The notes under the pieces: model-generated | Told to the model about the DNA's origin: nothing | Seen by the model: the letters and a program-made list of their open reading frames with translations, nothing else | The model's database searches: none | In this document: one piece after another, positions 2,101 through 60,430 of the stretch | Numbering within the stretch: position 1 is the stretch's first letter | Layout: each line of letters opens with the position of its first letter | Source: Cyanophora paradoxa CCMP329 | Taxonomy: Eukaryota > Plantae > Glaucophyta | Length of the DNA stretch: 64,000 nt | NCBI GenBank assembly: GCA_004431415.1 | Contig: QPMI01000600.1 | Coordinates: 62,001 to 126,000, forward strand | Reading direction: 5' to 3' | Translations under genes and position numbers: made by a program

Positions 2101-2160
2101 GCGCGCGCTGCTGCGCATGCGCAAGCGCGCGCGCGCGCTGCTGCGCATGCGCAAGCGCGC
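2101..2160. repeat. 30-bp direct repeat x2 containing the palindrome TGCGCATGCGCA
   Basis: gcgcgcgctgctgcgcatgcgcaagcgcgc is present twice back to back. Confidence 0.9.
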
Positions 2161-18670: not shown

Positions 18671-19942
18671 CGCTCAGCCAGCGGGGGCGCCTTCTGAACG
18701 GCTCCGGGCTCGCGTTTCTAGGCCTACTAGGCTAGCTCGTCGTCGTGCCGCTCAAGCGCGCGCCAGCTGCAGCTTAAGCTTGGCCAGGCAAGCGCATGAC
18801 ATGTGCCGCAGTACGTCACGTACACAGTCTACCCCCCCCCCCCCCCCCCCCCCCGAGCCTCCGGATATCGATCCGGCTCGAGCTCCGATCCGTCACATGC
18901 AGCCTCCGTGACGCCGATGGAGAGGCAGCGCTTAGCTATATATAGCTAGCCTGCACGCGCCGCTGCCGCCGGGCCGAAACCGGGCCAAACCAGCTCGAGC
19001 TCAGGCCCAGCTGCAGCCTGCAGGCCTAGGCCTAGGTGCTGATCATGCATATGATATCGATCATGATCATGACGTCGACCGGTGCGGCCGCGGGTCCCGG
19101 CCGCGGGCCTCCCGCGGCCGGCCCGTCGTGCGGATATCGATCGACGTCAGCCCGTCGTGCCGCAATATTTAATGCGGACCGGCCCTGCGCCCCCGGGGCC
19201 CCTCGAGCTCCCTAAGCTTATATTTATACGTATAAGCAATTACAATTAATATTAAGCTTGCGCCAACGTTAACGCGTCGATAACTGGGCCATGATCACCG
19301 CCTTAAGCTTTCCGGAGACTGGGCCGGAGTCCCCTAGGCCTAGGCCTCCATGGCCAGTCCGACACTGATCGCGAGCTCTAGATCTAGATCTAGATCTAGC
19401 AATATATTAATAGCTCGATCGCGAGGATCATCGGATCTGCAGCGCTAGCTGAGGATATCGATCTGATCATGATCCGATAAGGATCTGATCCTATGATCCG
19501 CCCCGCGCCCCCTGAGCCCCCTCCCCCCCGCGCCGGGCCGCGGCTGCCCGGCCCTCCTTATATATGTAATTAGCTTGCGGCAGTCCGCCTTGCACGGTTC
19601 GGGCCCGGGGGTGCAGCACCAGGCGGCGGATACGAACTCGGAATGTATGCCTGACGCTGAGGAAGCTCTTAAGCTTGGTGGAGGATGCCACGGCTGGCAG
19701 CGGGGGCATGACGAAGATCGCTAGCGCTGCCGCAGTGCAGCTGAGCTCGAGCTCGCGATCGAGACAAGAGACCGTTGGCTACAAGAGATCTTCGTGCGCA
19801 TGCAGCTGGCCAGAGGTGAGAAAACCCGGATAAATATATATAATATATGAGCACAACGTCAACGCTGTGATCGACGGTTTAATATCTCCGAAGCGAGAAT
19901 AGGAATATTAATATGGTTCCTTCACGACCACGAATTCGACTC

Positions 19943-22900: not shown

Positions 22901-22972
22901 GGCCGCGACGAGTGCGACGGCGAAGCACAACGCCCTGAGGCCTCGCGCAAGGCCGAAGCGAGAGCGCGCCAT
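19943..22972 (-). CDS. Secreted, probably GPI-anchored surface glycoprotein (CUB-like N-region, Ser/Pro/Thr stalk, IPT/TIG-like domain), multi-exon
   Basis: Signal peptide MARSRFGLARGLRALCFAVALVAATAANA; FTSTSDKLLV..DFTATY (CUB-like); SPSPSASPSP / TPTPSPSPT stalk; AGSAVTILGSGF (TIG-like); hydrophobic C-terminus SAAPAPFSALQLPGILLAAAIALKLAAALN*. Confidence 0.6.
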
Positions 22973-24147
22973 GTGCATCTCGCTGCAGCCTGCAGCGCGC
23001 GCGCTAGCTATAGCTAAGCTGTCCTCACTATAGCTAAAAGTCAACATCGAGCGCGTCGACCTTCAAGGCTTCGACGTACTACGGTACGCGTCCGACGCGT
23101 ACAGTCGATGCCATGAATCCCATAATTGATTCCCATGATCGGATGTGACCAGCGTTGTCATCATGATGGACACGGCCGTCGAGGCATCATGATGGGGTGA
23201 TAATGATCGATCATGATCAATCATGATGTCATGCAGCGATCATCATCGTTCAACACGGCATTTCCAACTCCTATTTCGCTGCACGAGCTCTCTGCTGCTT
23301 TTCTAATGCAAAGCAACGTGTTTATGACTCATTCCCGACCAAGCTGGATAGAAATTGGGCTCAGAGTTGGCCTGAAAGAGGCCCACACACTCCTCTTCCC
23401 AAGATTTTTGAGGCAGAGGAGCGGTTGATTAACCTCCTGCAATGTCAAGATAGTGTGTTATGTGTTTTAGAAGCTGCGTTAAGCGTATCCGCACCCATTC
23501 TCGAAGTGCGAATCGGTGCGATTTTGCATCGCCAGCGGCTAAGGGTGGTGTCACCTGTACCCCCCACGGCACCACAGCAGCCTTTCAACATCGTCAGAAT
23601 CGTTCCAAACCTCCTCTGACTAGCATATACGGTGTCGTTAAGCTGTTTAGAGAGCATAAAAGGTCGTTCAAACAGCGCGGGCGTCCAGAAACACGCGATT
23701 TGTGCACCGTACAGGTACCCCCCCCCTCATCATGATGGCCCCGATCATAATCCGACGTCATCATGATGCGTATTTTACGTGCCATCATGATGTCGTCATC
23801 ATGATGTGCGCATAATTATGACAGCACTGGATGTGACTCACTAGTACTGACTCACAGTCATGATCCGATGATCAGCTGGCAGCTGCAGCCTGCGCGCAGA
23901 CTGCATGCAGTGACCGGCCCATGGCCAGAGGGCCCCAGCTAGGGCCCAGACGTCGACCCGGGACCGTGTATACTTAGTATATACGTACCGTCCCGCCGAC
24001 GCGGTCCCGGTCCGTCCGGGCCGGTCCGGCGTCCGAGTCGGTAGTACTCGGTACCGGTCCGACGCGTACGGTCGGACTCCCGGACTCCCAGAAACTGGGC
24101 CGGAAACTTAAGCTTGAAATTGGCCCGGAATCCGAGTCCGAGGCCCG

Positions 24148-24856
24148 GAGCGTGATCCACCGTGCCTCTGCCTCGGGCAGTGAAAAAAAGTCTGCCTTGC
24201 CTTGCCTTGCCTAGCTTTCAAGTGAATTAAGTCAAGGCCTAGGCAAGGCAAGGCAGACTTTTTTTACATCTGAACCTAGGCACCTAGCCTCGGCTGGCGG
24301 TCCATGAGGCAGGCTACGTAAGCGCCCCAACGGCTAGCTGTTTCAAATCGCGCCGCCGTCGCGCAGCGCACGGCGCATCACTGTCGCCCGCGGCACGACG
24401 CTTACGTGTCTGCACACTCATAAGCAACATCTGGACGCACTTTGAGCTCGAGCTCTAGCTAGTGCTAGCTAGCTGGCGCTAGCTGCAAGGCGCCAGGTGA
24501 GCTGGCATCGCCCAGCTAGTCATTAGTGGTCAGTCTAACATCCTGCTAGGTTGCTAGTGACTTGCTACAATGCGCGAGGACAGTGGCAGGGAACGGGCGC
24601 CAGCAGGACTTGAACCGAGGCAGCCTGCCTCGGCTGCCCTAGGCTCCCTAGCGGGGTCTGAGGCCCCTAGGCAGCGGAGGCAACCTGCCTCATTTTTTTT
24701 CTGCCTTGCCTAGATTGTGCAGTCCAGACTTTCAAGTTAGGCAGCTGCCTGCAGAGGCGGTCCATGCTGCCTTTTTCAAGTTGGATTTTCGACGCAGTCG
24801 TAATTAGCCAATCGCGTAACTTGGAGGCCGAGGCAGAGGCACGGTGGATCACGCTC
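24148..24856. mobile_element. MITE / non-autonomous DNA transposon with 29-bp perfect TIRs and a 3-bp CCG target-site duplication (PIF/Harbinger-like by TSD length)
   Basis: GAGCGTGATCCACCGTGCCTCTGCCTCGG at 24148-24176 with its reverse complement at 24828-24856; ccg flanks both ends; internal inverted repeat of aaaaaagtctgccttgccttgcc at about 24183-24265. Confidence 0.8.
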
Positions 24857-24939
24857 CCGGCGCGCAAGAGGTCCGAGGGCTCTTTGCTGCTGGACCCCGA
24901 AAAAAACTCCGAAATTGGAATTCCGATCGACCGTCGGAC

Positions 24940-25075
24940 AGTCCCCACTGACTCCCCAGGGCCCAGACTGACCCCAGTGACTCAGTGACTCCCCAGATCT
25001 AGAGTCCCCAGTGACTCCCCACTGACTCCCTACTGAGTCCCTAGTGACTCAGTGACTCCCCACTGACTCCCCAGC
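24940..25075. repeat. Degenerate (C)AGTGACTCCCC / CACTGACTCCCC minisatellite
   Basis: About ten gactc/gagtc-centred units in tandem. Confidence 0.6.
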
Positions 25076-26662
25076 GCCTCCTTGGAGGCTCAATCCTCCT
25101 CACGGTGCGGATATCGATCGGATGATTCGGATCTCAGAGATTCTCAGTGCATCTGACTGCCAGGCTGCAATGCCGCTGCATCATCTCACCGTACCCTTTT
25201 AATTTCAAGTTTCGGCGAAATTCGAATTCGATTTTTTTGAAGTCGAATTTTGGCGCTCCGATCCGATGATCCGGCCATATGCATGCAGTACTAGCTACCG
25301 GGTACAACCGTACGGTACGAGTCGTACACAGTGACATATGCATGCGCTGCTGAGCATGATGATGCGCATGCGCATTCACGGTCCACCGTCCACGGTACAC
25401 CTGCATGCGCATGCATGCGCAGCTGCATGCGCACATGCAGGCTGCATGCGCAGCGTTGCCCGGCGCGGTGGTCACTAATGACTCACTATACCTTGAAATA
25501 CTTGATTTCCGCGCCACAAATTCCTGTAATTAGACGTATATATACATATATAGAAAGTTTTAGTCGAGACTTAATTTCGACGAAACCCGAAAATCGAGAC
25601 GAAAATATGGTTCGACACGCTGACGACAGGCTGTCGACAGCATCAAATTTTCGTCAGGCCCGCGACTCCGCCATAGACGGAGAATCAAATTCAAGAGAAT
25701 TTCAGTTCAAGAGAATCAAATAGACGGAGAATAGGCCCGCGATTTCAGTTCAAGAGAATCAAATATTCGTCAAAGTGCATGTCTGACGAATAAAGACGAA
25801 ATATTGAAGACGCTGTCGAAGATTCCTACCGTAGTACGTTTACAGTATCGCGTTCTAAACTTGAACTTCAGCGCCGGTCCCGGTAAGCATTTTAAAATTT
25901 AGCGCCCCCAGCCCTGGGCACACTGTGACAGACTGCCGCACAGTGGGCAGCCCCCCCCCCCCCCCCCCCCCCCCTCCCAGTTATAATTAGCTAGAGCCTC
26001 CGGGAAGGACACTGAGAAATCAACTGCAAGAGCTTTATATAGTACTTGCCTGCAAGAGTCTTCAGATTCTAGTTGAGAGAGAATCATTTATATTTCTTAG
26101 CTTCGATCTTTCGGGTAGAGTACCAGTACTACGGCACTTTACTACGCATACTATGATATATAGCTACGGAATGCAACACACACTATTTAACCTGTATACG
26201 TAATGCATATGGATATGAGGATTATATAGTAAGTATGGGTTTAGTAATGTCTAAAGTAACGCCACATGTACTGGCGAAATCAAAGAGATTCAGCTGGACG
26301 CGCACTAGGAAGGAGATCAAGAGCCTTGGAGAGAGAAAAATTTAAAGGACTAGACTGTGCATGTAACGAAATCTGATCGCAGCGATCGCAGCGAAGAAAG
26401 AGGATCATGCGCAGCGATCGTTGGATCGGCGCAGAACTTGAAAAGTCTAGATCTAGATCTGCGACTAATAAACAATCACAATTGCAGCGGAACTAATGAC
26501 TAAACAACGAGCTAGCTGGGCCGAGGGCCCGAGGCCCGGGGGTCGTGTAACAAATAACGAGCGCTAGCCGTTCTATAACGTGCACAGGCAATAGTCTAAC
26601 TGTAACAGGAGATCACTAACGGTGAGCGGACATGTACAGTCTCTGACGGTGAGCGCGTGGCG

Positions 26663-46320: not shown

Positions 46321-48278
46321 GGCGTCTGCGGCGGCGGGGGCGGCGGCGGCGGCGGCGGCGGCGGCGGCAGGGGCGGCAGCGCCGCCCTTGCGCTTCTTGA
46401 GGGCGTCGGGGCCGAAGCGCTCAATCGCGCGCTTGCGGGACTGGGCGGCGTTGTCCGCCGCGATCTGGGTGGCCTCCTCGCGGGCAGATACAGCATCTAT
46501 ATATATGCATATATATGATCATGAGCTCACTTGCAAGGGCCTAGCTATGCGCTTGCGCGCATATGCATGTACATGTAGTATATATATAGGGACCCGTCGA
46601 CGTCCTGGTTGCCTTGTTTAGAAATTTGCATAATGGCTGCTTCAGGCCTGTGCACTGGCATGCAAGTTCGAGCTCGAGAGCGCGAGGAGGGCGCCCAGCT
46701 CCCTCATGCAGTTAAAAGCTTTCGAATTGCTCCACTAGGGGGCCAAGGGCGTCCCAGAGCAGACGGGGGCCGACTTATTCGTGTGTAGGTCGATATCGCA
46801 GGCGCCCCTCAAGCTCGCCGACCGTATAGGAGGCTTGCATCGGGGGGGGTGTCAAGGGGACCAGTCGCCTCGTGGGAGAGGGACCGGCGGGCATGAGGGG
46901 CGGGCGGCGCGGGGCCTGGCAGCGACCGCCGGGGACGCATTGTCCGCCGCTGGGAAGACTTCGACGGAGCCCGGGGATTCCGGGTCCGATAGTGGGCGAG
47001 CGCCATCAGGCTCGGACCCCACGAGGGCGGGTCCCGGCGAGGCCGGGCCCTGAGGCAGGCGAGCGCCGTCTGGCTCAGACCCCGCAGTGGTAGCTGGGCG
47101 AGCATTTGAGTGCTCATGCGCCCGGGTATGCGTAGGGGTCGTCGGCTTGCATGCCGGCCGTCGGCTTGCATGCCGGCGCCGGCGGCGCCAGCAGAGGTGG
47201 CGTCACAGCGAGGGCGGGGGGGGTGCGGGGCTCGGAGCTCTGTCCACCGCCGCGTCTTGGGGCGCTTGTTCCGCGTCCCACCAGAGGCCTGCGAGCGTCG
47301 CGCACGCGTCACGGCGAGCCAAGTGAGCGGGGGGGATGCGGCCCCGTGGTTCTTGAGTGTCGTGCTGGCGCGGGCGGCCCCGCGCACGGGCCGCCGGCGC
47401 CTGCGTGCTCTGTGGCAGTGCGGGGCCAGCGTCAAAGTTCATAGAGGAGGGGCGCGGGCGAAGGGCGTGAGCGACGGGCGCGGGGAGGGTCCCGCATGGT
47501 CGGCGGCAGCGGAGCCGGGTGCGTTGGCGGAGCCGCGCGTCCGACTGCGCGGAGTCGAGTCGAGTCGTGCGTCGTGCGCTGTGGACGTGAGCTCAGGCGA
47601 GCCGCGCATGCGCGGGTGGCATGCGTTGGCGGAAGGATTTGCATTAGCACACAACAACAACTTCTAGGAGTTTCACATCGCCCAATTTATCTCTCCGACT
47701 AGATAACACTGAGGACCGTCGAGTGCTGTGCTCTGTCTAAGTGATGAGAAATTCTATCTACGTCCTATATCTACAAATGGGGCGAGAGGCCGAAAGATAC
47801 ACCTGCAGAAAAAGCCCAGGCCCTACGCAGACCGATGAAGGCAAAGGGAAGGCGGGAATGCGTTGGCGGGAAGGCGGGCGGAGCGAGGACGGGAGCTTAA
47901 ACGAGCGTATGGTGGCTCTAGATGTTGTGTGGCGTCTCTCGGGCGCGCTCGGAGCGGCAGGAGAGGGCGGCGGGGACCGGCCCGTTTAAACACGTTACCG
48001 CGGGAGCTGGCGCGAGTCGCGGCGCCAGCAGGGGCGCAGCTGCTCTTCTAGATGTCTGTGGTGTCGCTGCGGCTGTCGTTGCCCGCCCGGCTGACCTACT
48101 TTGCGCGTTCGGGCCGTGATGGTCGTAGGGCGTCGGCGCCGCGAGTTTTGGGACCGGCAACGTGCAGTGCTAACAGGCACCCGCGTTGGGGAAGCCCCAC
48201 TGCGCCGGCTTACTCGCTCGCGGGCCTTCGCGCAATTTTCCGGGGTACCGGAATCTCTTGCATTCGCGGCTATATATA

Positions 48279-49165
48279 TCATTTCTGAAGAGTACTAGTG
48301 GCACTGTCCATATGCATCTCGAGCTCCATCTGAACATTGCAAAGCCAGTGCTCCGCTCTCGGTAACTCTTCCCCAGATCGGAATAAGGACTGCAGATCGC
48401 GATCGGCGGCCGCGGCCACGTCGGCACTGCGCATACCTTGGCCAACAGCAGAAACCCGCACGCGCCGCACAGCTTTTTGCGGCAAAAGTTCACGCCCCTC
48501 CGGATCCGGATCCTCTGCCTGAAGTCTCGGTCGCTCCGGAGGGGCTGCAGCTGTCACAAGGAAACTAGAGATGCTAGGTTCCTCTCGAGCTGCAGATGTA
48601 GACCGCGTGCTCCCCTTAAGCTTGCAACTGTCTGTGCCATGTGTGCGTCTGATCCCTCTGTTCTCTGCGGCTGGTGGTTCCGGTAATGTTCGTCCGTGCG
48701 TAACCTTGAGTGGGGGAAGCGGAAGTCTTCTAGATACATGCGGTGCAGCTGCAGGTGACATTGCAGATTCGAATTCTGGTACCTGCGCCTGTGATTGATC
48801 ACGAGAAGCGCAAGTGAGCTGAAAAAGAGTAGAGGGCTTCGCGCGCCTGAGTAGCTATAGGGCTCGTGGAGGGTGCGGAAAGTGGGCGGCCTGGGGACTC
48901 TCGCACGTTCAGCTGTAGACGCGGTTGTATTGCTTGGCCGATATCGATCGCGCTGCGATTGCCATTGATCGGGATGCGTACGGGTGCGCTACTTGTAACG
49001 CCGGCGCCTTCCTTGTGCCTGTAATAATTACCGCCTTGCAATTGGGACTGAACTGACTGAACCGACTGCTCGTGATTGTGCCCGTATGCTTGCTTGTCCT
49101 TTGAATTCAACTCGATGTTTGCCCTAGGCCTCGAGCTCGTGACTGGTGTCTGGATGCGGCATCGA
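48279..49165 (-). pseudogene. 3' two exons of an unidentified host gene, truncated by the viral insertion
   Basis: Open frame from about 49165 to 48847, a 58-nt GC-AG intron at 48846-48789, then an in-frame exon 48788-48279 (..SPIATQ|AQVPEFESAMSPAAAP..STLQK*). The upstream part runs directly into the viral hairpin. Confidence 0.6.
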
Positions 49166-49168
49166 CGA

Positions 49169-49243
49169 CACACATATGAATATTCATATTTTAATCCCTC
49201 GGCGTTCCGCCTCAGGATTAAAATATGAATATTCATATGTGTG
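49169..49243. repeat. Terminal hairpin: perfect 29-bp inverted repeat with a 17-nt loop
   Basis: CACACATATGAATATTCATATTTTAATCC (49169-49197) / GGATTAAAATATGAATATTCATATGTGTG (49215-49243). Each arm contains the 16-bp palindrome ATATGAATATTCATAT; the loop holds a GGCG-ttc-CGCC mini-stem. Confidence 0.95.
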
Positions 49244-49245
49244 AT

Positions 49246-49470
49246 TCGATGTTATATCAATAAAATCGATTAATTTATTTGAATTTTCACCTGAATTTTC
49301 ATATTTTTATATGCATTTTCAATTAATTTAATCGATGTTATATCGATAAACTCGATTAATCGATATTGTATCTTAATTGTAGTTAATCGGAATTATATCA
49401 ATAACTTCGATTGATCTTAATTGAATCCTAAATGAATCTAATCGGAATTATATCAATAAAAACGATTAAA
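49246..49470 (+). repeat. Four iterated ~29-bp subterminal motifs (TCG..TTATATCAATAA..CGATT)
   Basis: Copies at 49246-49274, 49332-49360, 49387-49415 and 49442-49470. Confidence 0.85.
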
Positions 49471-49524
49471 TCATGTTCTTTTCCGATTAAATCAATTAAA
49501 TATTTAACTTTGTTACCATAAGTG

Positions 49525-49960
49525 GTCTAAGTTGACTCACTTTTCATAAACATTTTGAACTCTTAGTCTCCTTGAATTTCTTAATATGACTCAACTTAGT
49601 CAACTTAGTCAACTTTGTTACTGTAATCAATCAGGGTGGACTCACTTTTAGATCAACTTTGAAATTTCAAGCAAAATCAACTTGGATTTCAAAAGTGGAT
49701 CTTCTAAGTGGACTCAAAATGTTCACTTTGTGATACTTGTTAGCTCAAATCCTTACTGTTTATGGTCAGGGTTGACTAAGTGGGGGGAGTTGACACATTT
49801 TTTGAAATCCTTTTTAGAAAACTTTAGGTCCCAAATATTTTCTGTGAAATTTGAGTCAACTCAACCCACTTAGTCAACCCTTGCATTGAATTCGTAACAA
49901 AATCCATATACTTTTACTACTTTTACGATTAATATGAGTCAACCTTGAGTCCACTTAAAT
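49525..49960. repeat. Array of GTTGACT/GTGGACTCA motifs in both orientations, including a ~33-bp imperfect inverted repeat
   Basis: GGGTTGACTAAGTGGG (49769-49784) / CCCACTTAGTCAACCC (49865-49880); further copies at about 49530, 49590-49615, 49637, 49708 and 49935-49956. Confidence 0.85.
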
Positions 49961-50085
49961 ATAAATATAATATAATAGGGGGAATGAAGGGGAATGTTGA
50001 ATTTTACTGTAATGAAATCGAACATTATTCCAATTACTTACAATAGAATTCTATCGTAAAAAATGTCCGGAATCCGGAAAATAAT

Positions 50086-50150
50086 CATTGTATAAAGCTA
50101 CTGTAGTGAAAGGATATATTATATCTTTTTGTTACAGTAGCTTATCAATG
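50086..50150 (-). terminator. AT-rich hairpin downstream of the AdoMetDC gene; possible transcript 3'-end signal
   Basis: aagctactgta (50095-50105) / tacagtagctt (50133-50143) with inner gatata/tatatc and outer cattg/caatg pairs, about 50 nt past the stop at 50201. Confidence 0.45.
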
Positions 50151-50200
50151 TTATTGTTAGAAAACAAAGGAATCCTTTAGAAATTCATTATAGAAACCCA

Positions 50201-50599
50201 TCAAAACGGGAATCTATCATGTTTATGTCTCTCAGTCTTCTCAAATGTGAGGAAATTCATTGTTTTATCGATCTCATCTGCTACTGATTGTGTTTTATGC
50301 TGAGCTTCTTTACCACAACTGAATATATCAATTGCTAACATGCCTTCATTGGAATAACAATGAGCTGTACAATGGCTTTCATCTAATAGCAGAACCAAAG
50401 CAAAACCAGGAGGTGATAGTTTGCCATCAAATATCTCACAATGCTTATGAACAATCCTAATACCTTGTCTCAATACTGCTTGTTCAAGGGTTCCCATAAT
50501 CCAATTACCTAGGAAGCTTACATGCTCATGTCCTGTTGCAATAGCTGATTTAGCCTTGTAATCAAGCATAACATGAAAGCCTCTGTATTTAGTCTCCAT
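50201..50599 (-). CDS. speD: S-adenosylmethionine decarboxylase proenzyme, small prokaryotic (class 1B / SpeH-type) pyruvoyl fold
   Basis: GFHVMLD..; LLLDE|SH self-cleavage site (E74/S75); AHCY (H80); AIDIFSCG (C95); 132 aa. Confidence 0.9.
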   Translation of the reverse strand: METKYRGFHVMLDYKAKSAIATGHEHVSFLGNWIMGTLEQAVLRQGIRIVHKHCEIFDGKLSPPGFALVLLLDESHCTAHCYSNEGMLAIDIFSCGKEAQHKTQSVADEIDKTMNFLTFEKTERHKHDRFPF

Positions 50600-50628
50600 T
50601 AAGAATACCTTAGAAAAATTAATTAATC

Positions 50629-50901
50629 CTAATCGAACCTAATGCAAATATCCCTGTACTCTACTTTGATTGATGAAGTAGCCCTTTTCCTGTAAGCCTG
50701 AGAATGTTTTTTGTTGCATTCCCTGCAACCTGATCCCTTCACATGATTAAAGGGATAGGTAAGGATCACTTTATTACACTGCAAACATCTAACAGATACT
50801 TTCTCTTGAGCTTTGATGTAATGTGTCTCACTGTAATCGAATTTATCTTTACCATGAACTGTCATAGCAGCATCAATAAACTTTTTTGTTTTACTATCCA
50901 T
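50629..50901 (-). CDS. Stand-alone DUF723-like zinc-ribbon module (homing-endonuclease-associated repeat of large DNA viruses and phages)
   Basis: FIDAAMTVHGKDKFDYS..KVSVRCLQC..PFNHVKGSGCREC. Confidence 0.75.
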   Translation of the reverse strand: MDSKTKKFIDAAMTVHGKDKFDYSETHYIKAQEKVSVRCLQCNKVILTYPFNHVKGSGCRECNKKHSQAYRKRATSSIKVEYRDICIRFD

Positions 50902-50923
50902 ACTCTATATATAACCAATATTC

Positions 50924-51756
50924 TTATGGAGCAGTATCCTGCCCAAAAATGGGGAAATATCGATTTGTCCCATAGTATTCAGCATAGGTATTCTGCTTTG
51001 CAATAAAATCGGTTCTCTCAGCATATAATACACACTTGTAGATACCAAACTTGGTGGCTCTAACCAGGAACTGGTAATCTTCTAAACCGAAATTGACTCC
51101 ATGATAAGCAATACCAAAATTATCATATGGGGTGATCACAACTGCAAAATTAGGAGTTCCACCCTCTACTTGACAAAGAGCATAAACATCTGGTGGGATA
51201 TCCACAACTACCTTGTAGTGGTCACCAATTTCAACAAGAGAGTCTACTACTGCTGTTTGTTCATTTACAACAATGGGGAATATCTTTATAATGTATGGGG
51301 CATTCATGCTGGGGACATAGGTTCGAATTCTTGTATTGGGATCAATGGGATTGGGTTGATCATTCACAAATAAAGGCGCTCCAACAGCCCCACCAACCCT
51401 AAGACCATCACCAATATAAGCTCCCCCCGATTTGCAGTTAATAGCTCCCGACCTAGATTCAAAAGAATAAGTAGACAGAGGATCTCCATAGCTATCTGGG
51501 TCTCCATAATGAGCAGAAAAGTTTGCATTTGTGACAAGTAGCTTAGTTGTCTTAACTATACCATTATTTTTATCACATCTGAGTTCCTGTAATCTCAGTT
51601 TGTGGGTGGAACCAAAGGTGTTCATTGTAGGTTGGACCTCTGTTGATTGGAGACCCTCTACATCATCAAAGGTAGCATGCTGCAGAACATGGTTTGCTGG
51701 GGCAGCTAATGATAGCTGTGGTGTAATAATTCGTTCAAGTGGGGTTGCTCAGCCAT
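50924..51756 (-). CDS. Viral fibre paralog 4 (shared N-terminal domain, non-C1q head); single-base frameshift in a C4 run near 51742
   Basis: MAEQP + (frameshift) LERIITPQLSLAAPANHVLQH..LRLQELRCDKNNGIVKTTKLLVTNANF..GAINCKSGGAYIG..CVLYAERTD. Confidence 0.7.
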
Positions 51757-51779
51757 TTTACATTAAAGGGATATATCTT

Positions 51780-52624
51780 TTATGGGGTTGGGTCATCAAT
51801 TACATCTGGCTCTTGGTAAAACCCTGTAACTGAAAGAGTATCAGGAGTTACACCTCTAAGAGCTGATACAGCGGCTATATCTGTTCTCAAACCGATAAGA
51901 GTTATAGTATATAACCCAATATCTGTAACAAACAAGTCAAAGGTGAAATTATTATTATAAACACAGTAGCCATAACCGAAATGATTATATCCCTGAACAT
52001 TGAAATAGTATTTATGACCTACTTGATTGTTGTTGGCTCTACAAAGGGAAAGCATTGCAGATGGAATCGCAAGACCTCTCAGTACTCTTTTGGTTCCTTC
52101 AATTAATTCCGAGTTTTCAAGAGTAACAGTATATCCAATGTAAAATTGAATTAATGGCTGCTGTGCGACAGGAGTATATAATCGAATTCGTTGGGGGTCT
52201 TCCACATTTTGCTCTAGAGTATCTGGGACATCATTATACGAAATTGAGGATGAAAGCTGACCTGAAATTCGACAGCCACCCCAATAAATGCTCCTCCTGA
52301 TCTCACAGTGACAGCTGCAGAATTCTTATCGAAATCAAGGGCTTTCAGATCAACACTGTAAGCATCTGGACCTCCATTGGTAGGCTGAAAGAAGTTTGCA
52401 TTTGTGACAAGCAGTCGAGTTGTTTTAACCACACCAGAATTCTTATCAGCTCTCAGCTCTTTAACTCGAATAATCGAATTTTTATCAAAGGAGTTACCAT
52501 TGGAGTTGGGTCTCTCTGTGGATTCTAAACCACGAACCTCATCATTAACTTCATGCTGGCGAAAATGCATTGCAGGGGATCCAAGGGAATATATAGGCAG
52601 TTGAACTCGATTATATTCACCCAT
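51780..52624 (-). CDS. Viral fibre paralog 3; ORFs 52214-52663 and 51780-52205 join across a single-base frameshift at about 52280
   Basis: MGEYNRVQLPIYSLGSPAMHFRQH..IIRVKELRADKNSGVVKTTRLLVTNANF..VRSGGAFIG[G]GCRISG..VEDPQRIRLYTP..ITLIGLRTD; collinear with paralog 4. Confidence 0.7.
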
Positions 52625-52662
52625 TGCTTCTTTTACTAAGAAGGAAAGAAAAATAATGTTCA

Positions 52663-52926
52663 CTACTCTTCTGTAACATTATTATACTCAATACCTTTCT
52701 TTACAGTTCCCCTTTGGAATGCCTGTGACACAATTGCTTCCTTTGAGGTTGGTATTTGAACTCCTGATGAGATGCAAGATTGAATCTCTTTCTGAACAAT
52801 TTCATCAATTGCAATTCTCGCCCTGTTGTGAACAGCATTATCAATCCAATCTTGAACAGATAAAGCGCAATATTCCATTGCGAGATTTTCAGTATCTGAA
52901 AGAACCACTTGGTAGATATTCGACAT
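52663..52926 (-). CDS. Small 87-aa fibre-associated protein resembling accessory proteins found beside C1q-type fibres in marine phages
   Basis: VVLSDTENLAMEYCA..VQDWIDNAVHNRARIAIDEIV..QIPTSKEAIVSQAF.RG; family similarity is from recall. Confidence 0.6.
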   Translation of the reverse strand: MSNIYQVVLSDTENLAMEYCALSVQDWIDNAVHNRARIAIDEIVQKEIQSCISSGVQIPTSKEAIVSQAFQRGTVKKGIEYNNVTEE

Positions 52927-52945
52927 TCTATACTACTTGTAGAAA

Positions 52946-53968
52946 TTAAATTATGCTCAGCAATTCGCCACTAAATGTTGTGAATTCCGAAAGATAAGTA
53001 TGATTAGCATGAATAGAAACATTATCGCCTGCTCCAAGTCTTACTATTGCGCTCAAATTGATTGTTTTGTTGGTTACAGTTTGTGAGTTGTTTACCCTGA
53101 AATTGAATTCTGTTGAAACATTCTGATCATTTACTTTCAGATCTACACTCACAGTTGATGTAGTAATACTATAAGCAGTTAGAGAGAATCTGTAATCTCC
53201 GTAAACAGGTGCTGTGAATTTCCCTTCTACTAAATCGAATGAGTTGGTATTATCAAAGAATTCATGCAACCAATTCGTAAGACGTCCAAAGACTGCATTT
53301 CTTGTTGCTAAACCGAACCCAACACAGAATCGAGGTTGGGTTGCTTGCTTCAAATAAAAGTTTGCTGCGATTGTGAGACCTCCTGCATCAATTCGTGCGA
53401 CTTCTGTACTATTTCGTTTCAGAATCAGATCCACATTTGCTCCTGTATCTATTTCAGGTGTTTGTATCTTTGTGGTTGTGGTCATTACAGGGACTGTATT
53501 AGTAGGAACAGAAAGACCACCATTTGCATTCACAACACCTGTAAATGTTGTTGCTCCTGAAATTAAAACGTTTGTAGCTGAGAGTGTCCCATTCACAAAA
53601 GCTCCCGAACCTATCCATGCTCCACCTGATTTAACTACAAGTGCTGCATTATTTTCTGTCCCATCAAAAGTAACAATTTGTGGTGTGGTCACCCCACCTG
53701 CATCATCATAAATTGCTGCATCAGCAACTACACCACCTGTTAAAACCTGATTCTTGTTACTCACGATTAATTGAGTGGTTCTTATTTTTCCAGCATTTCT
53801 ATCACATCGAATTTCCTTGCATCTGATAATCGAATTTTGAGTAAACGAATCTGCTCCTGTGGTTTCTGTGCAAATAAACCCGGGAATAGCATCTGTGACT
53901 GTGTGGTTCAGTTGATGCAATTTAGGCGCTGCATAACAGAAAACAGGGACTGCGATTTGGGTAGCCAT
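52946..53968 (-). CDS. Viral fibre paralog 2 with C-terminal C1q/TNF-like head
   Basis: IIRCKEIRCDRNAGKIRTT..ALVVKSGGAWIG N-domain; SFDLVEGKFTAPVYGDYRFS..SAIVRLGAGDNVSI..TTFSGELL. Confidence 0.8.
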   Translation of the reverse strand: MATQIAVPVFCYAAPKLHQLNHTVTDAIPGFICTETTGADSFTQNSIIRCKEIRCDRNAGKIRTTQLIVSNKNQVLTGGVVADAAIYDDAGGVTTPQIVTFDGTENNAALVVKSGGAWIGSGAFVNGTLSATNVLISGATTFTGVVNANGGLSVPTNTVPVMTTTTKIQTPEIDTGANVDLILKRNSTEVARIDAGGLTIAANFYLKQATQPRFCVGFGLATRNAVFGRLTNWLHEFFDNTNSFDLVEGKFTAPVYGDYRFSLTAYSITTSTVSVDLKVNDQNVSTEFNFRVNNSQTVTNKTINLSAIVRLGAGDNVSIHANHTYLSEFTTFSGELLSII

Positions 53969-53990
53969 CTATAAAACCCCTACAAAAAGT

Positions 53991-55040
53991 TTATAATCTA
54001 CTGATGAGATGCCCCCCGAAACAGGTAGTACCACCAATTGTCCCCGTTGGTTCAACATATATGTATGATGACCAGATATGTATGACATTCACATGTTCGT
54101 TTGCATATACAGGAAAAGAAGCCTCCATGTGAACACTTCGCTTTCCATTGAAAGTTGAAAATACTTGAACCGATTGGGGGGAAATAAACAAATCATTCTT
54201 TTGAAAACTAATTCTACACTCCCCTGTGGATGCTGTTGTTGACATTTGAACCATAAAGAAGAATCTATAAATTCCTGAAACAGGTGCTGTAAAATTGCCT
54301 GCGTTGCTGACACTATTGCTTGCATCTACAAGAACTCTATTATAAGTGAATTTCCTTGTTTCTACTGTTGCTCCAACATTAAATCCTGATGTTGAATAAG
54401 CAACAACACAAAAACGAGGGTGTGGAACTTTCAGATATTTAAGTAGATTAATGGATGGAGAAACATTGTTAATTGTTGCTGTAACCACTGCATTTCTCTT
54501 TACATTAAGTGCAGCTGTTGTTTCAATTTCAGGTGTGTTTAACTTTGTGGAGAAGACACCAACACCAACTGAAAGACTACTCGCATTAAATCCACCCTGA
54601 AAAGTTATTGGACTCTCAAAAGTTCCACTTCCAGCATTTAGTATGGGTGCTGTTACTGTTCCATTCACCTTTAATGCCTCTCCAAAGTATGCCCCTCCAC
54701 TCTTAACTACAAGAGCTGCAGTATTGCTTGTGTTCCCAAAAGTAACTATCTGTGCAGTGGTAAATCCACTCACATTATCATATATTGCTGAATCGGGAAC
54801 TACTTGACCTGCTTGAACTTGATTTTTATTCGAGATTATAATTCCTGTGGTTCTTATCTTGCCTCCATTGCGATCACATCGAATTTCTTTGACTCTGAGT
54901 ATATTGTTCTCTGTGAAAGAGGTGTTGCTTGAAGTTTCAGTGCAAATATACCCAGGGGTTGAATCAACTACTCCATGAGAGGTGCTATGGATTGATTTGG
55001 CTGCAAATTCGTAGTTTGGGATTTCTAATAGAGAGGTCAT
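53991..55040 (-). CDS. Viral fibre paralog 1 with C-terminal C1q/TNF-like head (probable start MTSLLEIP)
   Basis: ILRVKEIRCDRNGGKIRTT..ALVVKSGGAYFG; GNFTAPVSGIYRFFF..TCFGGHLI. Confidence 0.8.
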   Translation of the reverse strand: MTSLLEIPNYEFAAKSIHSTSHGVVDSTPGYICTETSSNTSFTENNILRVKEIRCDRNGGKIRTTGIIISNKNQVQAGQVVPDSAIYDNVSGFTTAQIVTFGNTSNTAALVVKSGGAYFGEALKVNGTVTAPILNAGSGTFESPITFQGGFNASSLSVGVGVFSTKLNTPEIETTAALNVKRNAVVTATINNVSPSINLLKYLKVPHPRFCVVAYSTSGFNVGATVETRKFTYNRVLVDASNSVSNAGNFTAPVSGIYRFFFMVQMSTTASTGECRISFQKNDLFISPQSVQVFSTFNGKRSVHMEASFPVYANEHVNVIHIWSSYIYVEPTGTIGGTTCFGGHLISRL

Positions 55041-55059
55041 CTTTGTAATAACGAAATAG

Positions 55060-58000
55060 TTAAATTGCGACAGCAGTGTAATGAATTGTAACTGGAAATC
55101 CTGGTCTGTCAAAAGAACTTAATGGAACTATTTCAAGCTCACATGTGAAATAGCTACTGTAAACTTGTTTAAGCCTAACATACATGCGGTAGTAGTAGGC
55201 TGTCTCATTGTGTTGTATACCGGTTGTTACGATAGGAGGGTTAGCAAAGCTGCTGTTGAAATTAATAGTGAGGTTAAACCTATGGTCAGGGTTTGCCCAA
55301 AGATAAGGAGTAGTGTAAACATACGTTCCTGCTTGAAGTTTCCCATTGAAATATGCATTGAGTTGACTGGAAAGATCTGCTTCAGTTAAACATCTACTTA
55401 TAGAAGCATTATTGGAAGGGTTCATAGCGTAGAAATTTCTTGCATAGGCATTTCCACGAACAAGTAAGGTCTTATCAAAGTAATTTTGCGAATTGTGAAA
55501 GAACCATGTTTCTTCAAACATAGGTCCTGCTGGTTCTACTATCTGACCTGATCCTACATACATTGTGTTATTCGCTCTGATGGTGGTAGCTGTGAATGGA
55601 TCGAGAGTTGGTCTATTGGTCAGATCATTGTAGTTGCCTGAGAATATTGCGGGCTTATTATAGATATCTGTATTCCAATCATGAGTGTGTGCAAAATCTG
55701 TAATCTCTGCCTTAGTGTGATTGTGAGCGAAATCTGTTATCTCTGACTTTGTATGGTTGTGTGCGAAATCTGTGATCTCAGATTTAAAATGAGTGTGAGC
55801 AAAATTCGTTATTTCTGCCCTGGTATGGGTGTGTGCAAAGTCTGTTATTTGGGACTTTGTGTGAGTGTGTGCGAAATCTGTGATCTCTGCCTTTGTGTGG
55901 GTGTGTGATCTATTATTAAGATCAAGGAAGCTTCCTGAAAATGCAACAGGATGCAGATTTGCAGCAGTAGGTTTATTGATGAGATCATTATAGTCTCCTG
56001 TGAATGAAATTGTCTTCAGTTCACCCCTTCCAACATAATCAGAAGGTAGATCAATCTTGATGGGCATTATAGCTGGATCATCTGGTATCTCATACTCACC
56101 TCCTGGATGAACCACAGGGAAGGTTTGATTGCTTTCAGTATGAACAAAGAAGTTGCATGCTGTTACTGTTCCATCAATAATCCCACCTGTGAGAGGGAGG
56201 TAATTTCCTGTGACATGTATACCTGCAATGATTGTATTAAGTTCTGTTTCATCTATGTAGTTCTGGGCTTGAAGGTAATCCTCTGTCACCACTCTTGATA
56301 TGGTCTCATTGTGAATATTCTTTGCTGCTGCCCTCTGATTGATCTCTAGAACTCCCTCACCAACTCCACCATTATAATTCGTTTTGATCCATGCCATCTC
56401 ACATCTCTTATAGTCATCTCGATTTCCTATGAGAGCATCAGGTAACAGTCTCTCCCTGCTGAATATTAATTTTGGTCTTGAACCATCCAAATCACTCACA
56501 TCAGTAACATTAATTTGGATTGCTGCATCTTTGTCATCATAGTTGACTGGATCAGATGGTAGAGATATTAATCCTCCTGTCATTGGGATGTCATCAGCAT
56601 AGTAACTGGTTAAATAGATACCTGGTTTGGTGTCCAATGCTCCGAAATTTCCACCTGCTGCAATCATCTGCATTCTTGTAGGGGGTCTAATGTATAATTC
56701 ACCTTCCATAGTAGTGCCTGCATCAATACCCTTTCGATTGACATAATAATCATTTAGTTGTAGCCTCTCAGGTATGGTATTACTCTGGTAAAGACTCACA
56801 CCATGTGGGAAGTCTGTTAGCAGGTTGCCTGCAGATGCAAATTTGGGTTGCTGGTCAATTTCACTCCAAGGGTGTCTGTGATTACAGTTGGTGATCTGGG
56901 TATAATCATGAGTATGGGAATCAGGAGGGAATGTTAGTGGTCTATCTGTGATATGCTCCCATAAATGTGTGTGATCAAAATCTGTGATCTCTGATTTAGT
57001 ATGAGTGTGGTTACTGTTGGTGATCTGGGAATAATCATGAGTGTGAGCAACAGGTGGAAAGGTCAATGGCTTGTCTGTGATATGCTCCCATAAGTGATTG
57101 TGAGAACTGGGAGGGAATGTCAATGGCTTGTCTGTGATATGCTCCCATAAGTGATTGTGAGAACTGGGAGGGAATGTCAATGGCTTGTCTGTGATATGCT
57201 CCCATAAGTGATTGTGAGAACTGGGAGGGAAGGTCAAAGGTTTATCTACAATATTCGACCAGGCATGGGTGTGGTCAAAATCTGTAATCTGGGCTTTTGT
57301 GTGAGTGTGATTTTGAATCCAACCTTGAACCACATTAGAGGTTGGATGATGTGGTAAATTTGCATTGCTTGTAACTGTAAGGTAATCTATTACAGTATCA
57401 GGTGAGGTTATTTTTAATCCTCTGTAAATATTCAGAGTCTGGGTATGAGTGAATCCATATTTTTGTTGAATGTAATACCTAACAGCATTCTTTTCAGAAG
57501 TTGTCAAAGCCCTATTGAAAACAATCAACTCGGAAATACCACCATTCACAATATTACCAAATCCGAAATGATTGACAGTATTATCTGGTAGATAATTTGT
57601 TCCTACAAGTGTTTGAATATCTACTCCATTTAACCCGACTGTGTAGCTGCTAGAAGTAATTGTTTGGTCAGTGTAATACCATGTATTTATTAAAGAAGGA
57701 ACCGTAATATCTGGGCGGGTTTGGGATGCTCCATTAATAGTGAACTGGTTCATTCCAATAGCAGTAGAAGATGTTGCCCCATAATAACAATATCGTGATG
57801 GAAAGGCGCTTCTGTAAAGTCTCAAGTGAACTTGCATAGAAGAGGCAGTTGGATGATATTTTCCCACAAAGAAAAATGTAAGCCCATTTGAGAAATCAAT
57901 AGTTCTTGTAGCAGAGGTATATGCATAAAAAGTGCCTGTTGGGCTTGAAACACTAACTTGGTTGTTGATTTCGGGATTGGTGTAATAGGAACTGGCTCCG

Positions 58001-60387
58001 TAGATAAACAAGTCTGGAACAACTGAATTCGGGACTCTGCTTACTATAGTTGTATACATTGCTGATTGACCTGGTACTCCTGATGCCTTCCAAGCAAAAA
58101 TGCAGTTCGAGATATTTGATGCTGGATCAAAGCTTGGCGGGACATCATACCATTCTTTGTAAACCTGATTCATGGTATTGAAATTGCAAGAGCCAATTGT
58201 GAGGATTCCATTTACTTTTAGGTTGCTGGTCACTATATTGCTGCTGTAAATATTACTATTAACTGTGAGGTTTCCTGTGATTGTCCCACCCACAAGAGGG
58301 AGATATTTGGATAGTTCTGCTGCAAGTTCAGCTTCTGTAATAAATTGATCAAGCATAGCAAGGGTTACAAAATTAACAAGGATTACTGCAGTAAGGTAAT
58401 CCTCTGTGACCACTCTCGAAATGTTCTCATTGTGTATGTTTTTTGCAGCCATCCTCTGATTAGCTTCCAGAACCCCACCATAATCTGTTTTAATCCATGC
58501 AAGCTCTGCCCTCCCATAGTTATCATTTGCAGTTCCCACTATGGGAATGTAGGAATATTTATCTCGACTGAATACTATCATTGGTCTTGAGCCATCTAAA
58601 CTGCTTACATCTGCTACATGAACCTGTATAGCAGAGTTGTAATTTTGGTAGGTTGCTGGGTCTGTTGGGACTCTAAAAGTATCTGTGGGTATGTCAGCCT
58701 CCATGTAGCTTGACACAAAGATATTTGGTATGGTTGCTCCTGGTTCAGGTGGGGTTTCATAAGAGCCTGGTAATGTCCTAATATGAAGTGGTCCTCTCAT
58801 AGCTGAATTCGCAAGTGTCCCATTCACATGTACATAGTGTTCATTCAAAAAGATTCTTTCAGGGACATTGCAAGTCTGGTAAAGAGAAACCCCCAAGTTA
58901 TCAAGAGGCTCTACCTTTGCAAATTCTGGTTGGTCATTGATCTCATCCCAAATATGTTCATGTTTGCTTGGTGGGAACTCAGTAGGTATCCCATCAATTT
59001 CACCCCAATCATGCCTGTGATCCTCTGGTGGATACTTTTGAGGTTTGCCTAAGATCTCATCCCAATCATGATTGTGATCCTCTGGGGGATACTTTGCAGG
59101 TTTATTATTAATTTGTTCATAATCAGGAAAGAACTCCCAGATCTCAGGTCGAAATCCATCTGGTAATAATTCCTCATGGGGTTCATAAGGTTGCTCATAG
59201 TCAACAACTGGTGGATCATGACCATCTGGTAAATACTCCTCATCAGGTTCATAGTTCTGCTCATACTCATACTCTTGAGGATCTAAGCCATCTGGTAGTA
59301 TCTCCTCCTCATTGGGGTCATACTGATCATATTCATATTCTTGTGGGTCAAAACCATCTGGTAAATACTCCTCCTCATCTGGAACGAATTGATATTCATC
59401 AAGCTCTAAAATATCGACTTCAGGAGGTAAATACTGCTCATCTATTTGCTTTCTGGGTTCAATTATCGGTTTATTGCGAACTTGCTCCCAACTAACAATA
59501 TGCTGCCCAAAGGCTACATCTTCAGTTGCTGTGTATTCTCTTCCAGGCTGCTTCTTTGGTGTTAAATCCGGTGGATCCCATGGAAGAGGGAAGGGAACTG
59601 GGACAGGTCCATAATACTCAAAGATCTCTCTTATGGTCTTCTCACTTACAAGCTTCTCACCATTTGCATACACATTACTGCCATGGATATTTCGCCATTG
59701 CCTGGTTCGAATTCCAAGGTCTTTCACATTGCTATACAAAGGCAAAAGGTGCCTATCCATTTCGACTAAATCAGGATGTAAATGGATTGCTACTGGTTGA
59801 CTGGGGCTACTGTTGATTGTAATTGATGGCTTTTTTTGATGGACATCTTTTGGAGTAAAGAACCCAAAAGGCTCATTCCTTGCAAAGTCATATGTAATAT
59901 CCTTTGGGTAGACATCATTTGTGTAGGAGACCTGATTTGTGTTGGCAATGGGACCCACTTGCAATACTTGGGGGACCTCAGCTTTTGCAGTGCTGCCCTC
60001 ATTGTAAATTCGCAAAGCTGTGTTCTGTTTGCCCTGCTCATCTTGAACATTGAAAACCAAACGACCACTATCAAACCTGGAAGGTATATCTGGATGAGTG
60101 CCACTGGTTTTTAGTTTCCTAGGTCTCCTTCTTGTTGCTTTGATCTCTGCCACTTGGTTTGCTTTCACATTACCCAAGCTAAAAGCTACACTGACTTCCT
60201 CCTTATCTGGATCGGTTTGATTCACAGATAAAGCATGCTCCCTTGATTGAGTCTTTGATGAATTATCAGAGCTGTGGTCAATTGAAACTGAACCCTTTAC
60301 TTTAATATTATCAAAGTTCACATGCTTGGTGCTGCTTGCATTATCATCTTGAATGGTTTCTAGATTTGGTGGGTAATTGAAGCTCAT
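55060..60387 (-). CDS. 1775-aa mosaic fibre/adhesin with His-rich phage tail-fibre repeats, LamG/concanavalin-like domain and C-terminal H-lectin-like domain
   Basis: HxHxWxxIxxKPxxFPP and HTHTKSEITDF repeats; acidic EEYLPDGxDP repeats; GISELIVFNRALTTSEKNAVRYYIQQKYG; LTINFNSSFANPPIVTTGI..VTIHYTAVA; an internal ~200-aa duplicated block. Confidence 0.75.
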   Translation of the reverse strand: MSFNYPPNLETIQDDNASSTKHVNFDNIKVKGSVSIDHSSDNSSKTQSREHALSVNQTDPDKEEVSVAFSLGNVKANQVAEIKATRRRPRKLKTSGTHPDIPSRFDSGRLVFNVQDEQGKQNTALRIYNEGSTAKAEVPQVLQVGPIANTNQVSYTNDVYPKDITYDFARNEPFGFFTPKDVHQKKPSITINSSPSQPVAIHLHPDLVEMDRHLLPLYSNVKDLGIRTRQWRNIHGSNVYANGEKLVSEKTIREIFEYYGPVPVPFPLPWDPPDLTPKKQPGREYTATEDVAFGQHIVSWEQVRNKPIIEPRKQIDEQYLPPEVDILELDEYQFVPDEEEYLPDGFDPQEYEYDQYDPNEEEILPDGLDPQEYEYEQNYEPDEEYLPDGHDPPVVDYEQPYEPHEELLPDGFRPEIWEFFPDYEQINNKPAKYPPEDHNHDWDEILGKPQKYPPEDHRHDWGEIDGIPTEFPPSKHEHIWDEINDQPEFAKVEPLDNLGVSLYQTCNVPERIFLNEHYVHVNGTLANSAMRGPLHIRTLPGSYETPPEPGATIPNIFVSSYMEADIPTDTFRVPTDPATYQNYNSAIQVHVADVSSLDGSRPMIVFSRDKYSYIPIVGTANDNYGRAELAWIKTDYGGVLEANQRMAAKNIHNENISRVVTEDYLTAVILVNFVTLAMLDQFITEAELAAELSKYLPLVGGTITGNLTVNSNIYSSNIVTSNLKVNGILTIGSCNFNTMNQVYKEWYDVPPSFDPASNISNCIFAWKASGVPGQSAMYTTIVSRVPNSVVPDLFIYGASSYYTNPEINNQVSVSSPTGTFYAYTSATRTIDFSNGLTFFFVGKYHPTASSMQVHLRLYRSAFPSRYCYYGATSSTAIGMNQFTINGASQTRPDITVPSLINTWYYTDQTITSSSYTVGLNGVDIQTLVGTNYLPDNTVNHFGFGNIVNGGISELIVFNRALTTSEKNAVRYYIQQKYGFTHTQTLNIYRGLKITSPDTVIDYLTVTSNANLPHHPTSNVVQGWIQNHTHTKAQITDFDHTHAWSNIVDKPLTFPPSSHNHLWEHITDKPLTFPPSSHNHLWEHITDKPLTFPPSSHNHLWEHITDKPLTFPPVAHTHDYSQITNSNHTHTKSEITDFDHTHLWEHITDRPLTFPPDSHTHDYTQITNCNHRHPWSEIDQQPKFASAGNLLTDFPHGVSLYQSNTIPERLQLNDYYVNRKGIDAGTTMEGELYIRPPTRMQMIAAGGNFGALDTKPGIYLTSYYADDIPMTGGLISLPSDPVNYDDKDAAIQINVTDVSDLDGSRPKLIFSRERLLPDALIGNRDDYKRCEMAWIKTNYNGGVGEGVLEINQRAAAKNIHNETISRVVTEDYLQAQNYIDETELNTIIAGIHVTGNYLPLTGGIIDGTVTACNFFVHTESNQTFPVVHPGGEYEIPDDPAIMPIKIDLPSDYVGRGELKTISFTGDYNDLINKPTAANLHPVAFSGSFLDLNNRSHTHTKAEITDFAHTHTKSQITDFAHTHTRAEITNFAHTHFKSEITDFAHNHTKSEITDFAHNHTKAEITDFAHTHDWNTDIYNKPAIFSGNYNDLTNRPTLDPFTATTIRANNTMYVGSGQIVEPAGPMFEETWFFHNSQNYFDKTLLVRGNAYARNFYAMNPSNNASISRCLTEADLSSQLNAYFNGKLQAGTYVYTTPYLWANPDHRFNLTINFNSSFANPPIVTTGIQHNETAYYYRMYVRLKQVYSSYFTCELEIVPLSSFDRPGFPVTIHYTAVAI
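55680..55910. repeat. 36-bp coding tandem repeat (HTHTKxEITDFA x6)
   Basis: Identical 12-aa period with synonymous divergence at the DNA level. Confidence 0.9.
57062..57232. repeat. 57-bp near-perfect tandem repeat x3 (PLTFPPSSHNHLWEHITDK)
   Basis: gtcaatggcttgtctgtgatatgctccc... starts at 57062, 57119 and 57176. Confidence 0.95.
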
Positions 60388-60430
60388 GGCTTTTACTATA
60401 TGGATTTATAAAATTCCTGATAAGTAAAAG

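Follow-up and report, generated by a model that had tools for sequence, protein, structure and literature searches.

A perfect terminal palindrome at the host junction of a multi-copy element, most likely a Polinton-like virus, in Cyanophora paradoxa

Introduction

The tips of classical Polintons are protein-primed. Ends of another kind were described for the endogenous viruses of Halocafeteria seosinensis, in which palindromes are located within terminal inverted repeats (TIRs), beside the target duplications, of virophage subtypes 1, 2, 5 and 6 and of subtype 4, a Polinton-like virus (PLV) (bioRxiv 10.64898/2026.07.28.741278). According to the accessible part of that preprint, such palindromes go together with replicases other than pPolB and with certain RVE integrases; the copying of ends in PLVs without a protein-primed polymerase is called open, and hairpin priming is proposed without a test. 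Since such ends and hairpin priming are already described there, the idea of a hairpin end is not new; loop direction and solo hairpins are not among the topics treated in that part. For AAV, a virus with single-stranded DNA, the HUH protein Rep and a T-shaped terminal palindrome of 125 nt, the outlined scheme is that extension, nicking and fill-in rebuild the palindrome and invert its centre (PMC11575299). In phaeoviruses, giant viruses with tyrosine recombinase and protelomerase, the telRL-like site is described as internal with a 6-bp core, and the att junction lies in the core (PMC13236599). The accessible parts of three further papers deal with hairpins of giant viruses or with inverted repeats of PLVs in the role of origins (PMC12747079; PMC11296320; PMC12085832). 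The words 'hairpin' and 'palindrom' are absent from the main text of PMC8547959 and PMC10120064, and a search of literature titles and abstracts, with subscription papers outside its scope, gave no hairpin ends of glaucophyte PLVs.

Here we describe a palindrome at the tip of an integrated element of C. paradoxa CCMP329. The window is the whole stretch of 64,000 nt that was analysed (contig QPMI01000600.1), and 14.8 kb of the element (49170-64000) lie within it. As in the Halocafeteria ends, the palindrome is located at the extreme end next to host DNA, is common to the copies (one of which breaks off at 49205) and belongs to what appears to be an integrated virus of Preplasmiviricota type. 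It differs in length (73 nt, against 52 nt in their subtype 5), in its nested 16-bp palindromes and asymmetric 17-nt loop, and in host and gene set. With the rolling-hairpin termini of AAV and parvoviruses it shares a terminal palindrome able to prime from its 3′ end and an asymmetric centre with the potential for flip and flop, whereas no enzyme like the HUH Rep was found in the visible 14.8 kb. What it has in common with the telRL and attP sites of phaeoviruses and N15 is the association of an inverted repeat with the ends of an algal virus that integrates. Classical Polintons/Mavericks and mavirus-like EMALEs are likewise multi-copy integrated viruses with a penton and a long, non-coding, repeat-rich end; their protein-primed ends are unlike the self-priming end proposed below.

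Results

Structure of the terminal palindrome

At about 49.17 kb, GC-rich and intron-rich host DNA gives way to AT-rich DNA, with a drop in GC content from 0.57 in the kilobase before the hairpin to 0.29 in the kilobase after it. A scan for perfect inverted repeats detected arms of 29 bp at 49169-49197 and 49215-49243, separated by a loop of 17 nt, which form the longest perfect inverted repeat of the window (loop up to 60 nt). Each arm includes the 16-bp palindrome ATATGAATATTCATAT (49174-49189 and 49223-49238), and a 4-bp GC stem is formed within the loop between 49201-49204 and 49208-49211. When folded as DNA, the segment 49170-49242 gave −29.5 kcal/mol (z = −14.2), and none of 200 shuffled sequences was equally stable. 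The palindrome in each arm, the GC mini-stem and the position at the host/virus junction, all pointed out in the initial annotation, were thus borne out by sequence, fold and contigs. In Rfam, only miRNA models were matched, far below the gathering score.

The tip of the element starts with a short AC repeat (Table 1). At 49292-49310, within the subterminal array on the inner side, the arm recurs a third time in degenerate form; the array appears from its sequence to be iteron-like. The second repeat set contains an inverted repeat of 35 nt (49768-49802 and 49847-49881).

Table 1. Features of the element and of its host junction (positions in the window)
Feature	Position	Strand	Basis
Host bases adjoining the junction (TCGACGAC); would hold a target-site duplication	49162..49169	+	Differ among sister junctions
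Terminal palindrome, 73 nt, first bases of the element	49170..49242	.	Fold, inverted-repeat scan, unitig 49170-49205 at depth 4483 against 59.9 for host flank (run X1)
Outer arm, 28 bp, starts ACACATATG	49170..49197	+	Start fixed by short-read contigs
Nested perfect 16-bp palindrome of outer arm; inner-arm copy at 49223-49238	49174..49189	.	Sequence, inverted-repeat scan
Loop of 17 nt, asymmetric, with 4-bp GC mini-stem; flip or flop is read from its direction	49198..49214	+	Fold, sequence
Inner arm, exact reverse complement of outer arm	49215..49242	-	Sequence
Subterminal AT-rich array of five degenerate 52-nt repeats, rich in ATCGAT, with 55 nt as the last spacings	49223..49470	+	Repeat families D1, D5
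Second non-coding repeat set, GTCAAC/GTTGAC motifs	49501..49957	.	D2, D3, I3
S-adenosylmethionine decarboxylase (AdoMetDC)	50201..50599	-	PF02675, E=3.9e-11
Short ORF matching non-catalytic part of phage endonucleases; probably a remnant	50629..50901	-	phrog_681, phrog_559, E about 1e-8 to 3e-9
Four paralogous ORFs with common N-terminal domain, two with C1q heads, and two small ORFs; likely fibre/spike	50924..55040	-	Domain and paralogue comparison
1775-aa fibre, phage-tail repeats (PTR) and C-terminal H-lectin	55060..60387	-	Matches to phage tail families (E to 6e-29); Pfam scores of both PTR and H_lectin under the cut-off
Patatin phospholipase fused to F5/8 type C domain	60431..61987	+	Domain search
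Penton-like ORF, C-terminally shorter than homologue P0123 of window copy	62150..62908	-	55% identity to P0123
Penton (minor capsid protein), single jelly roll	62938..63948	+	DUF5901 clusters, fold matches

The palindrome is the regular end of a multi-copy element

Part of the stretch was present in 20 of 24 listed runs, all with the same species label; contigs were compared in four runs, and a 136-base stretch in two. Three of the four (X1, X8 and X14) are DNA-type runs, and X16 is presumed, as a guess, to be an RNA run. The bridging rule of the contig tool is 31 letters, and contig depth serves as a rough guide rather than as a copy number. An identical contig of 967 bp (48228-49194) was found with zero differences in all three DNA-type runs, at depths of 59.9 (X1), 41.2 (X8) and 91.8 (X14); the window itself may derive from one of these runs. 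The X1 contig 49170-49205 reached a depth of 4483, about 75 times that of the host contig. Further X1 contigs tile the hairpin at depths of 4357, 4146 and 3558 with no alternative letters across 49170-49275, and hairpin contigs overall stand at about 60-75 times host depth. In X16, 49170-49727 is contained in a single contig.

At least eight other junction contigs place different host-like DNA beside the same tip, six in X1 (at 49162, 49168 twice, 49242, 49244 and 49245) and two in X16 (49165 and 49170), and the host flanks differ between insertions from the first base on. The sequence from 49291 onward varies between copies, and genes and nearby sequence differ by several percent. The palindrome thus starts at the first base of the element, is identical in most sister ends and adjoins unrelated host DNA: it is a real and family-wide end, and the normal one, of a multi-copy element. 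A repair scar unique to the window copy or a fold-back read artefact was the refuting case named in the initial annotation; an artefact of long-read assembly is a further one of this kind. The sole supporting point for any of these is that the 967-bp junction contig extends just 25 bases into the element, less than the 31-letter bridge; that contig recurs without differences in three of three DNA-type runs. Such a scar or artefact is practically ruled out, because the hairpin, the exact end of the element, is kept in the sister copies at depths of 3558-4483 against 60 and at least eight contigs carry different host DNA at the same tip.

The common unitig starts at 49170, and one sister junction has G where the window copy has C49169. 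The element therefore begins at 49170, and its own arms are 28 bp long (49170-49197 and 49215-49242). The 29th pair is most likely a host base that matches by chance; the perfect pairing of 29-bp arms noted initially was correct, and the arm proper to the element is one pair shorter. An extra pairing of 6-7 bp with host CATCGA is absent from those sister flanks that are readable in full.

By eye, no reverse-complement pair indicative of a target duplication of 5-6 bp was found among nine flanks, a comparison of little power as these are nine of about 70 ends. Two sister flanks (49162 in X1 and 49165 in X16) match TCGACGAC at about seven of eight bases; with a host frequency of 8.6e-4, about 0.06 such matches would be expected among 70 ends. 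A target preference at the insertion site is possible, as a post hoc reading of flanks for which the tool favours window-like sequences. The depth in X1 was 4483 at the tip, 1999 at 49517-49865 and 4049 at 50792-50938, and X14 differs; there is no clean halving, and these ratios do not separate a hairpin at one end from hairpins at two.

Two further observations concern the contigs. In one X1 contig, the tip continues as far as 49205 and is then replaced by other DNA; this may be a copy truncated within the loop or a related element that ends differently. All short-read contigs disagree with the window at several places within 49461-50707.

Affiliation of the element

The gene architecture indicates that the element is most likely a PLV of the glaucophyte kind, because its fibre, patatin-F5/8 and AdoMetDC genes match those of published glaucophyte PLVs (PMC12220804). 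Both have the PTR and H-lectin fibre, reported once in that paper, in a glaucophyte PLV, and the F5/8-patatin fusion, reported there mainly in rhizarian and glaucophyte PLVs; minor capsid, many copies and a GC content far below the host are also in common. Table S6 of that paper lists, for 156 glaucophyte elements, AdoMetDC in 66, lipase in 89, rve in 85 and tyrosine recombinase in none, and among replication genes the protein-primed polymerase PF03175 in 49, the D5-type primase-helicase PF08706 in 40 and the PIF1 helicase in 34. The likeness to these 156 entries is one of gene architecture, and 'hairpin' and 'palindrom' do not occur in the main text. The single jelly-roll penton and the many integrated copies with a sharp GC shift agree with a PLV; PLVs in general are 14-40 kb long and have TIRs at both ends.

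In the same table, the major-capsid models of the paper are matched by 2 of the 156 elements, protease by none and the A32 ATPase by 139. The capsid of glaucophyte PLVs may thus be of a divergent type.

The ORF at 62938-63948 had an atlas score of 0.98 against viral DUF5901 clusters, its recognition value being just below the threshold of the tool. Its predicted model (pLDDT 48.7) matches minor capsid proteins of Tetraselmis virus S1, mavirus and others. Among solved capsid chains, the model was aligned with PBCV-1 6ncl_a6 (Z 14.1, rmsd 3.1, 135 aligned), Sputnik 3j26_N (9.8) and the mavirus penton 6g41_A (9.5), and the best five structural matches are capsid chains of PBCV-1, Sputnik, mavirus and EhV-201; this fold does not distinguish PLV, virophage and giant virus. 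The single-sequence fold of 62150-62908 was unusable (pLDDT 33.5).

A Pfam scan of all 63 stop-to-stop frames of at least 55 aa in 49170-64000 gave no integrase, tyrosine recombinase, protelomerase, HUH or RuvC/resolvase domain, which answers for these 14.8 kb the search for such enzymes suggested with the initial annotation. In the same frames no protein-primed polymerase B, rve integrase, protease or replicase was detected, the part beyond 64000 lying outside the window; likewise, double jelly-roll major capsid protein and A32 ATPase are absent from this visible part. The patatin search returned generic homologues only (29-38% identity), and by exact sequence none of seven window proteins was in the protein collection. 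IMG/VR gave no match to the 24-nt arm pattern and no confirmed relative in any of six protein or alignment scans. In metagenomes, the 16-bp palindrome was found twice at 11 loci; none of these has blastn or tblastn similarity to the element, and simple AT repeats make up most of them. One metagenome contig (L008:1803-1850) ends in a long near-perfect palindrome with the same 16-bp motif, and has no likeness to the element.

The N-terminal domain of the four paralogues, of about 110 aa, has no Pfam or PHROG match and no relative in IMG/VR; it is possibly a capsid-anchoring module for exchangeable spike heads. ORF 52214-52624 ends short of its paralogues, and 62150-62908 is without the C-terminal part of P0123. 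The shortened ORFs within 51780-52624 and 61980-62908 represent either decay of the window copy or assembly errors.

Direction of the loop

The direction of the loop is the same in all three resolved junctions (the window and X16 records 9 and 11). One X1 contig, with at least 255 host-like letters, departs at 49242, where the inner arm has its outer end; this is the exit expected from a reversed junction. The contig graph was then simulated with 15-120 ends, the match limit of the tool being an assumed value. At a limit of 28 letters, a tie permits the exit at 49242 but predicts 25-31 partly placed contigs for 50-72 ends, or 12 for 15 ends, against 7 observed. At limits of 29-30, this exit never appeared when reversed junctions were left out of the model (0 of 40 and 0 of 60 runs), nor did the addition of low-depth chimeras produce it (0 of 60). 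When reversed junctions were included it was seen 0.03-1.1 times per run, and solo hairpins gave it in 0-28% of the runs. Depth bins are incompatible with a graph unbranched at the inner arm (ratio 1.16, against 1.33 observed) but accommodate reversed shares anywhere between 4% and 50%; they are equally compatible with low-depth chimeras or with solo hairpins. The full loose-end pattern was reproduced in at most 7% of simulated runs under any model.

These simulations hint at the presence of a reversed junction, as flop isomer or solo hairpin, the hint coming from one contig and an assumed match limit. A solo hairpin would be a natural outcome: with a terminal palindrome at either end, the element would be bracketed by direct repeats of 28 bp. 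The breaks of the graph at the inner arm were rejected as proof of flop isomers, as low-depth chimeras give the same breaks; therefore only the one long contig counts. A hand estimate of reversed junctions, at most about 8%, was dropped, since full simulations indicated that tied placements spoil it.

Discussion

The explanation that we prefer, and to which we give an even chance, is that the 73-nt palindrome is a self-priming fold-back end on an rve-integrated PLV. By pairing with the inner arm, the 3′ arm would prime DNA synthesis, and no terminal protein would be needed. Once the element is excised, its 3′ end, consisting of inner sequence, arm, loop and arm-3′, would snap back to form a primer-template junction, and extension would seal this end covalently. 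Nicking at 28 bp from the loop, followed by fill-in, would reopen the end, so that the arms are kept perfect and the loop can invert. Insertion of the opened linear form might then be carried out by an rve-type integrase and produce a short target duplication. Proteins of replication or integration may bind to the nested 16-bp palindromes and to the subterminal repeats.

In favour of self-priming, the fold is flush with the terminus, which is the geometry needed by a self-priming 3′ end; the arms are identical over 28 bp, while the sequence from 49291 onward varies; and in the published glaucophyte PLVs with like genes, rve is found in 85 of 156 and a protein-primed polymerase in only 49. The Halocafeteria palindromes, which accompany RVE and replicases other than pPolB, and the X1 contig that departs at 49242 also count in its favour. 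Against it, the visible part has no replicase, integrase or nicking enzyme, the search for the last giving only the endonuclease remnant at 50629-50901, and about one-third of the matching published set has a protein-primed polymerase. Protein-primed ends often start with a short AC repeat, as the tip does here. In addition, the three resolved junctions are uniform in loop direction, whereas hairpin transfer of the AAV type yields both.

This uniformity would also fit an ordinary TIR end, protein-primed or primase-driven, in which the palindrome is never a primer and acts as a cruciform or protein-binding origin, offering two symmetric sites to a dimeric replication, integration or packaging protein. 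Nested perfect 16-bp palindromes next to iteron-like repeats would suit such a role, PF03175 is present in 49 of the 156 matching PLVs (PMC12220804), and inverted repeats have been proposed as origins for PLV primase-helicases (PMC11296320). However, binding needs no 28 perfect pairs flush with the last base, an end of this form would self-prime upon any strand displacement, and the possible reversed junction at 49242 is not predicted. We consider an origin or binding site of this kind unlikely, although it deserves serious weight.

Sharing alone does not show function, because every copy has a common ancestor. A fold-back copying accident in one ancestor could have been inherited without function, integration still working since the outer arm repeats the original tip. 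Accidental annealing is named as an alternative in the Halocafeteria preprint (bioRxiv 10.64898/2026.07.28.741278), and the nested palindrome may be the trace of an earlier fold-back. This origin is rather improbable: the arms stay perfect although nearby sequence and genes differ by several percent among copies, and the preprint describes comparable ends in five viral subtypes whose host is unrelated.

The initial annotation had also considered a recombinase or resolvase site. In this case the free virus would be circular or concatemeric, and the palindrome would be a junction at which a recombinase, protelomerase or resolvase cuts, with insertion leaving a copy at each end. Phaeoviruses do rely on an attP for tyrosine recombinase that has inverted repeats, and on a palindrome like telRL (PMC13236599), and a duplicated junction palindrome gives reversed loops at right ends, as the contig at 49242 allows. 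A recombinase att site is disfavoured because the host junction of an att site lies in a short core between the repeats; in the present element, host DNA meets the palindrome at its outer edge, no core is shared, and the flanks are unrelated and differ from the first base. A telRL-like site, as described in PMC13236599, is internal and centred on a 6-bp palindrome, whereas the palindrome here is terminal with an asymmetric 17-nt loop; tyrosine recombinase is found in 0 of the 156 matching PLVs. A circle junction is thus very improbable. The opened covalently closed telomere put forward at the outset survives in part: an opened or self-priming hairpin end is the best reading, with the even chance given above, and a telRL-type site does not fit a terminal palindrome with such a loop.

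Integration by a route other than that of classical Polintons, also proposed initially, is not supported, because the published PLV set carries rve (85/156) and no tyrosine recombinase (0/156). By analogy with Polintons and EMALEs, rve integration with a short target duplication is likely; known duplications are 3-5 bp in EMALEs and 5-6 bp in mavirus and Polintons.

As a wider and more doubtful extension of self-priming, the PLV family would replicate by hairpin transfer like parvoviruses or poxviruses. The approximately 70 ends would then keep flip and flop isomers, the rve integrase would act on an opened hairpin end, and lost elements would leave solo 73-nt hairpins. If this is true, terminal resolution in a double-stranded Polinton-like virus is preserved in these ends as a frozen record. 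The asymmetric loop and the dozens of ends in a cultured and repeatedly sequenced organism make the hairpin-priming model testable.

Other features of the window

Three observations concern the host part of the window. At 48200-48300, contig depth rises to 1500-3100, against 41-92 alongside; another repeat of high copy number has its edge there, at a distance of about 900 bp from the virus. A stretch of 8 kb (18700-26600) has lower GC (0.51-0.60), no long ORFs and many short palindromic runs. The segment 24143-24861, of 719 bp, is bounded by 34-nt inverted repeats (97%), contains a perfect 25-bp hairpin at 24183-24265 and looks like a host MITE or foldback element.
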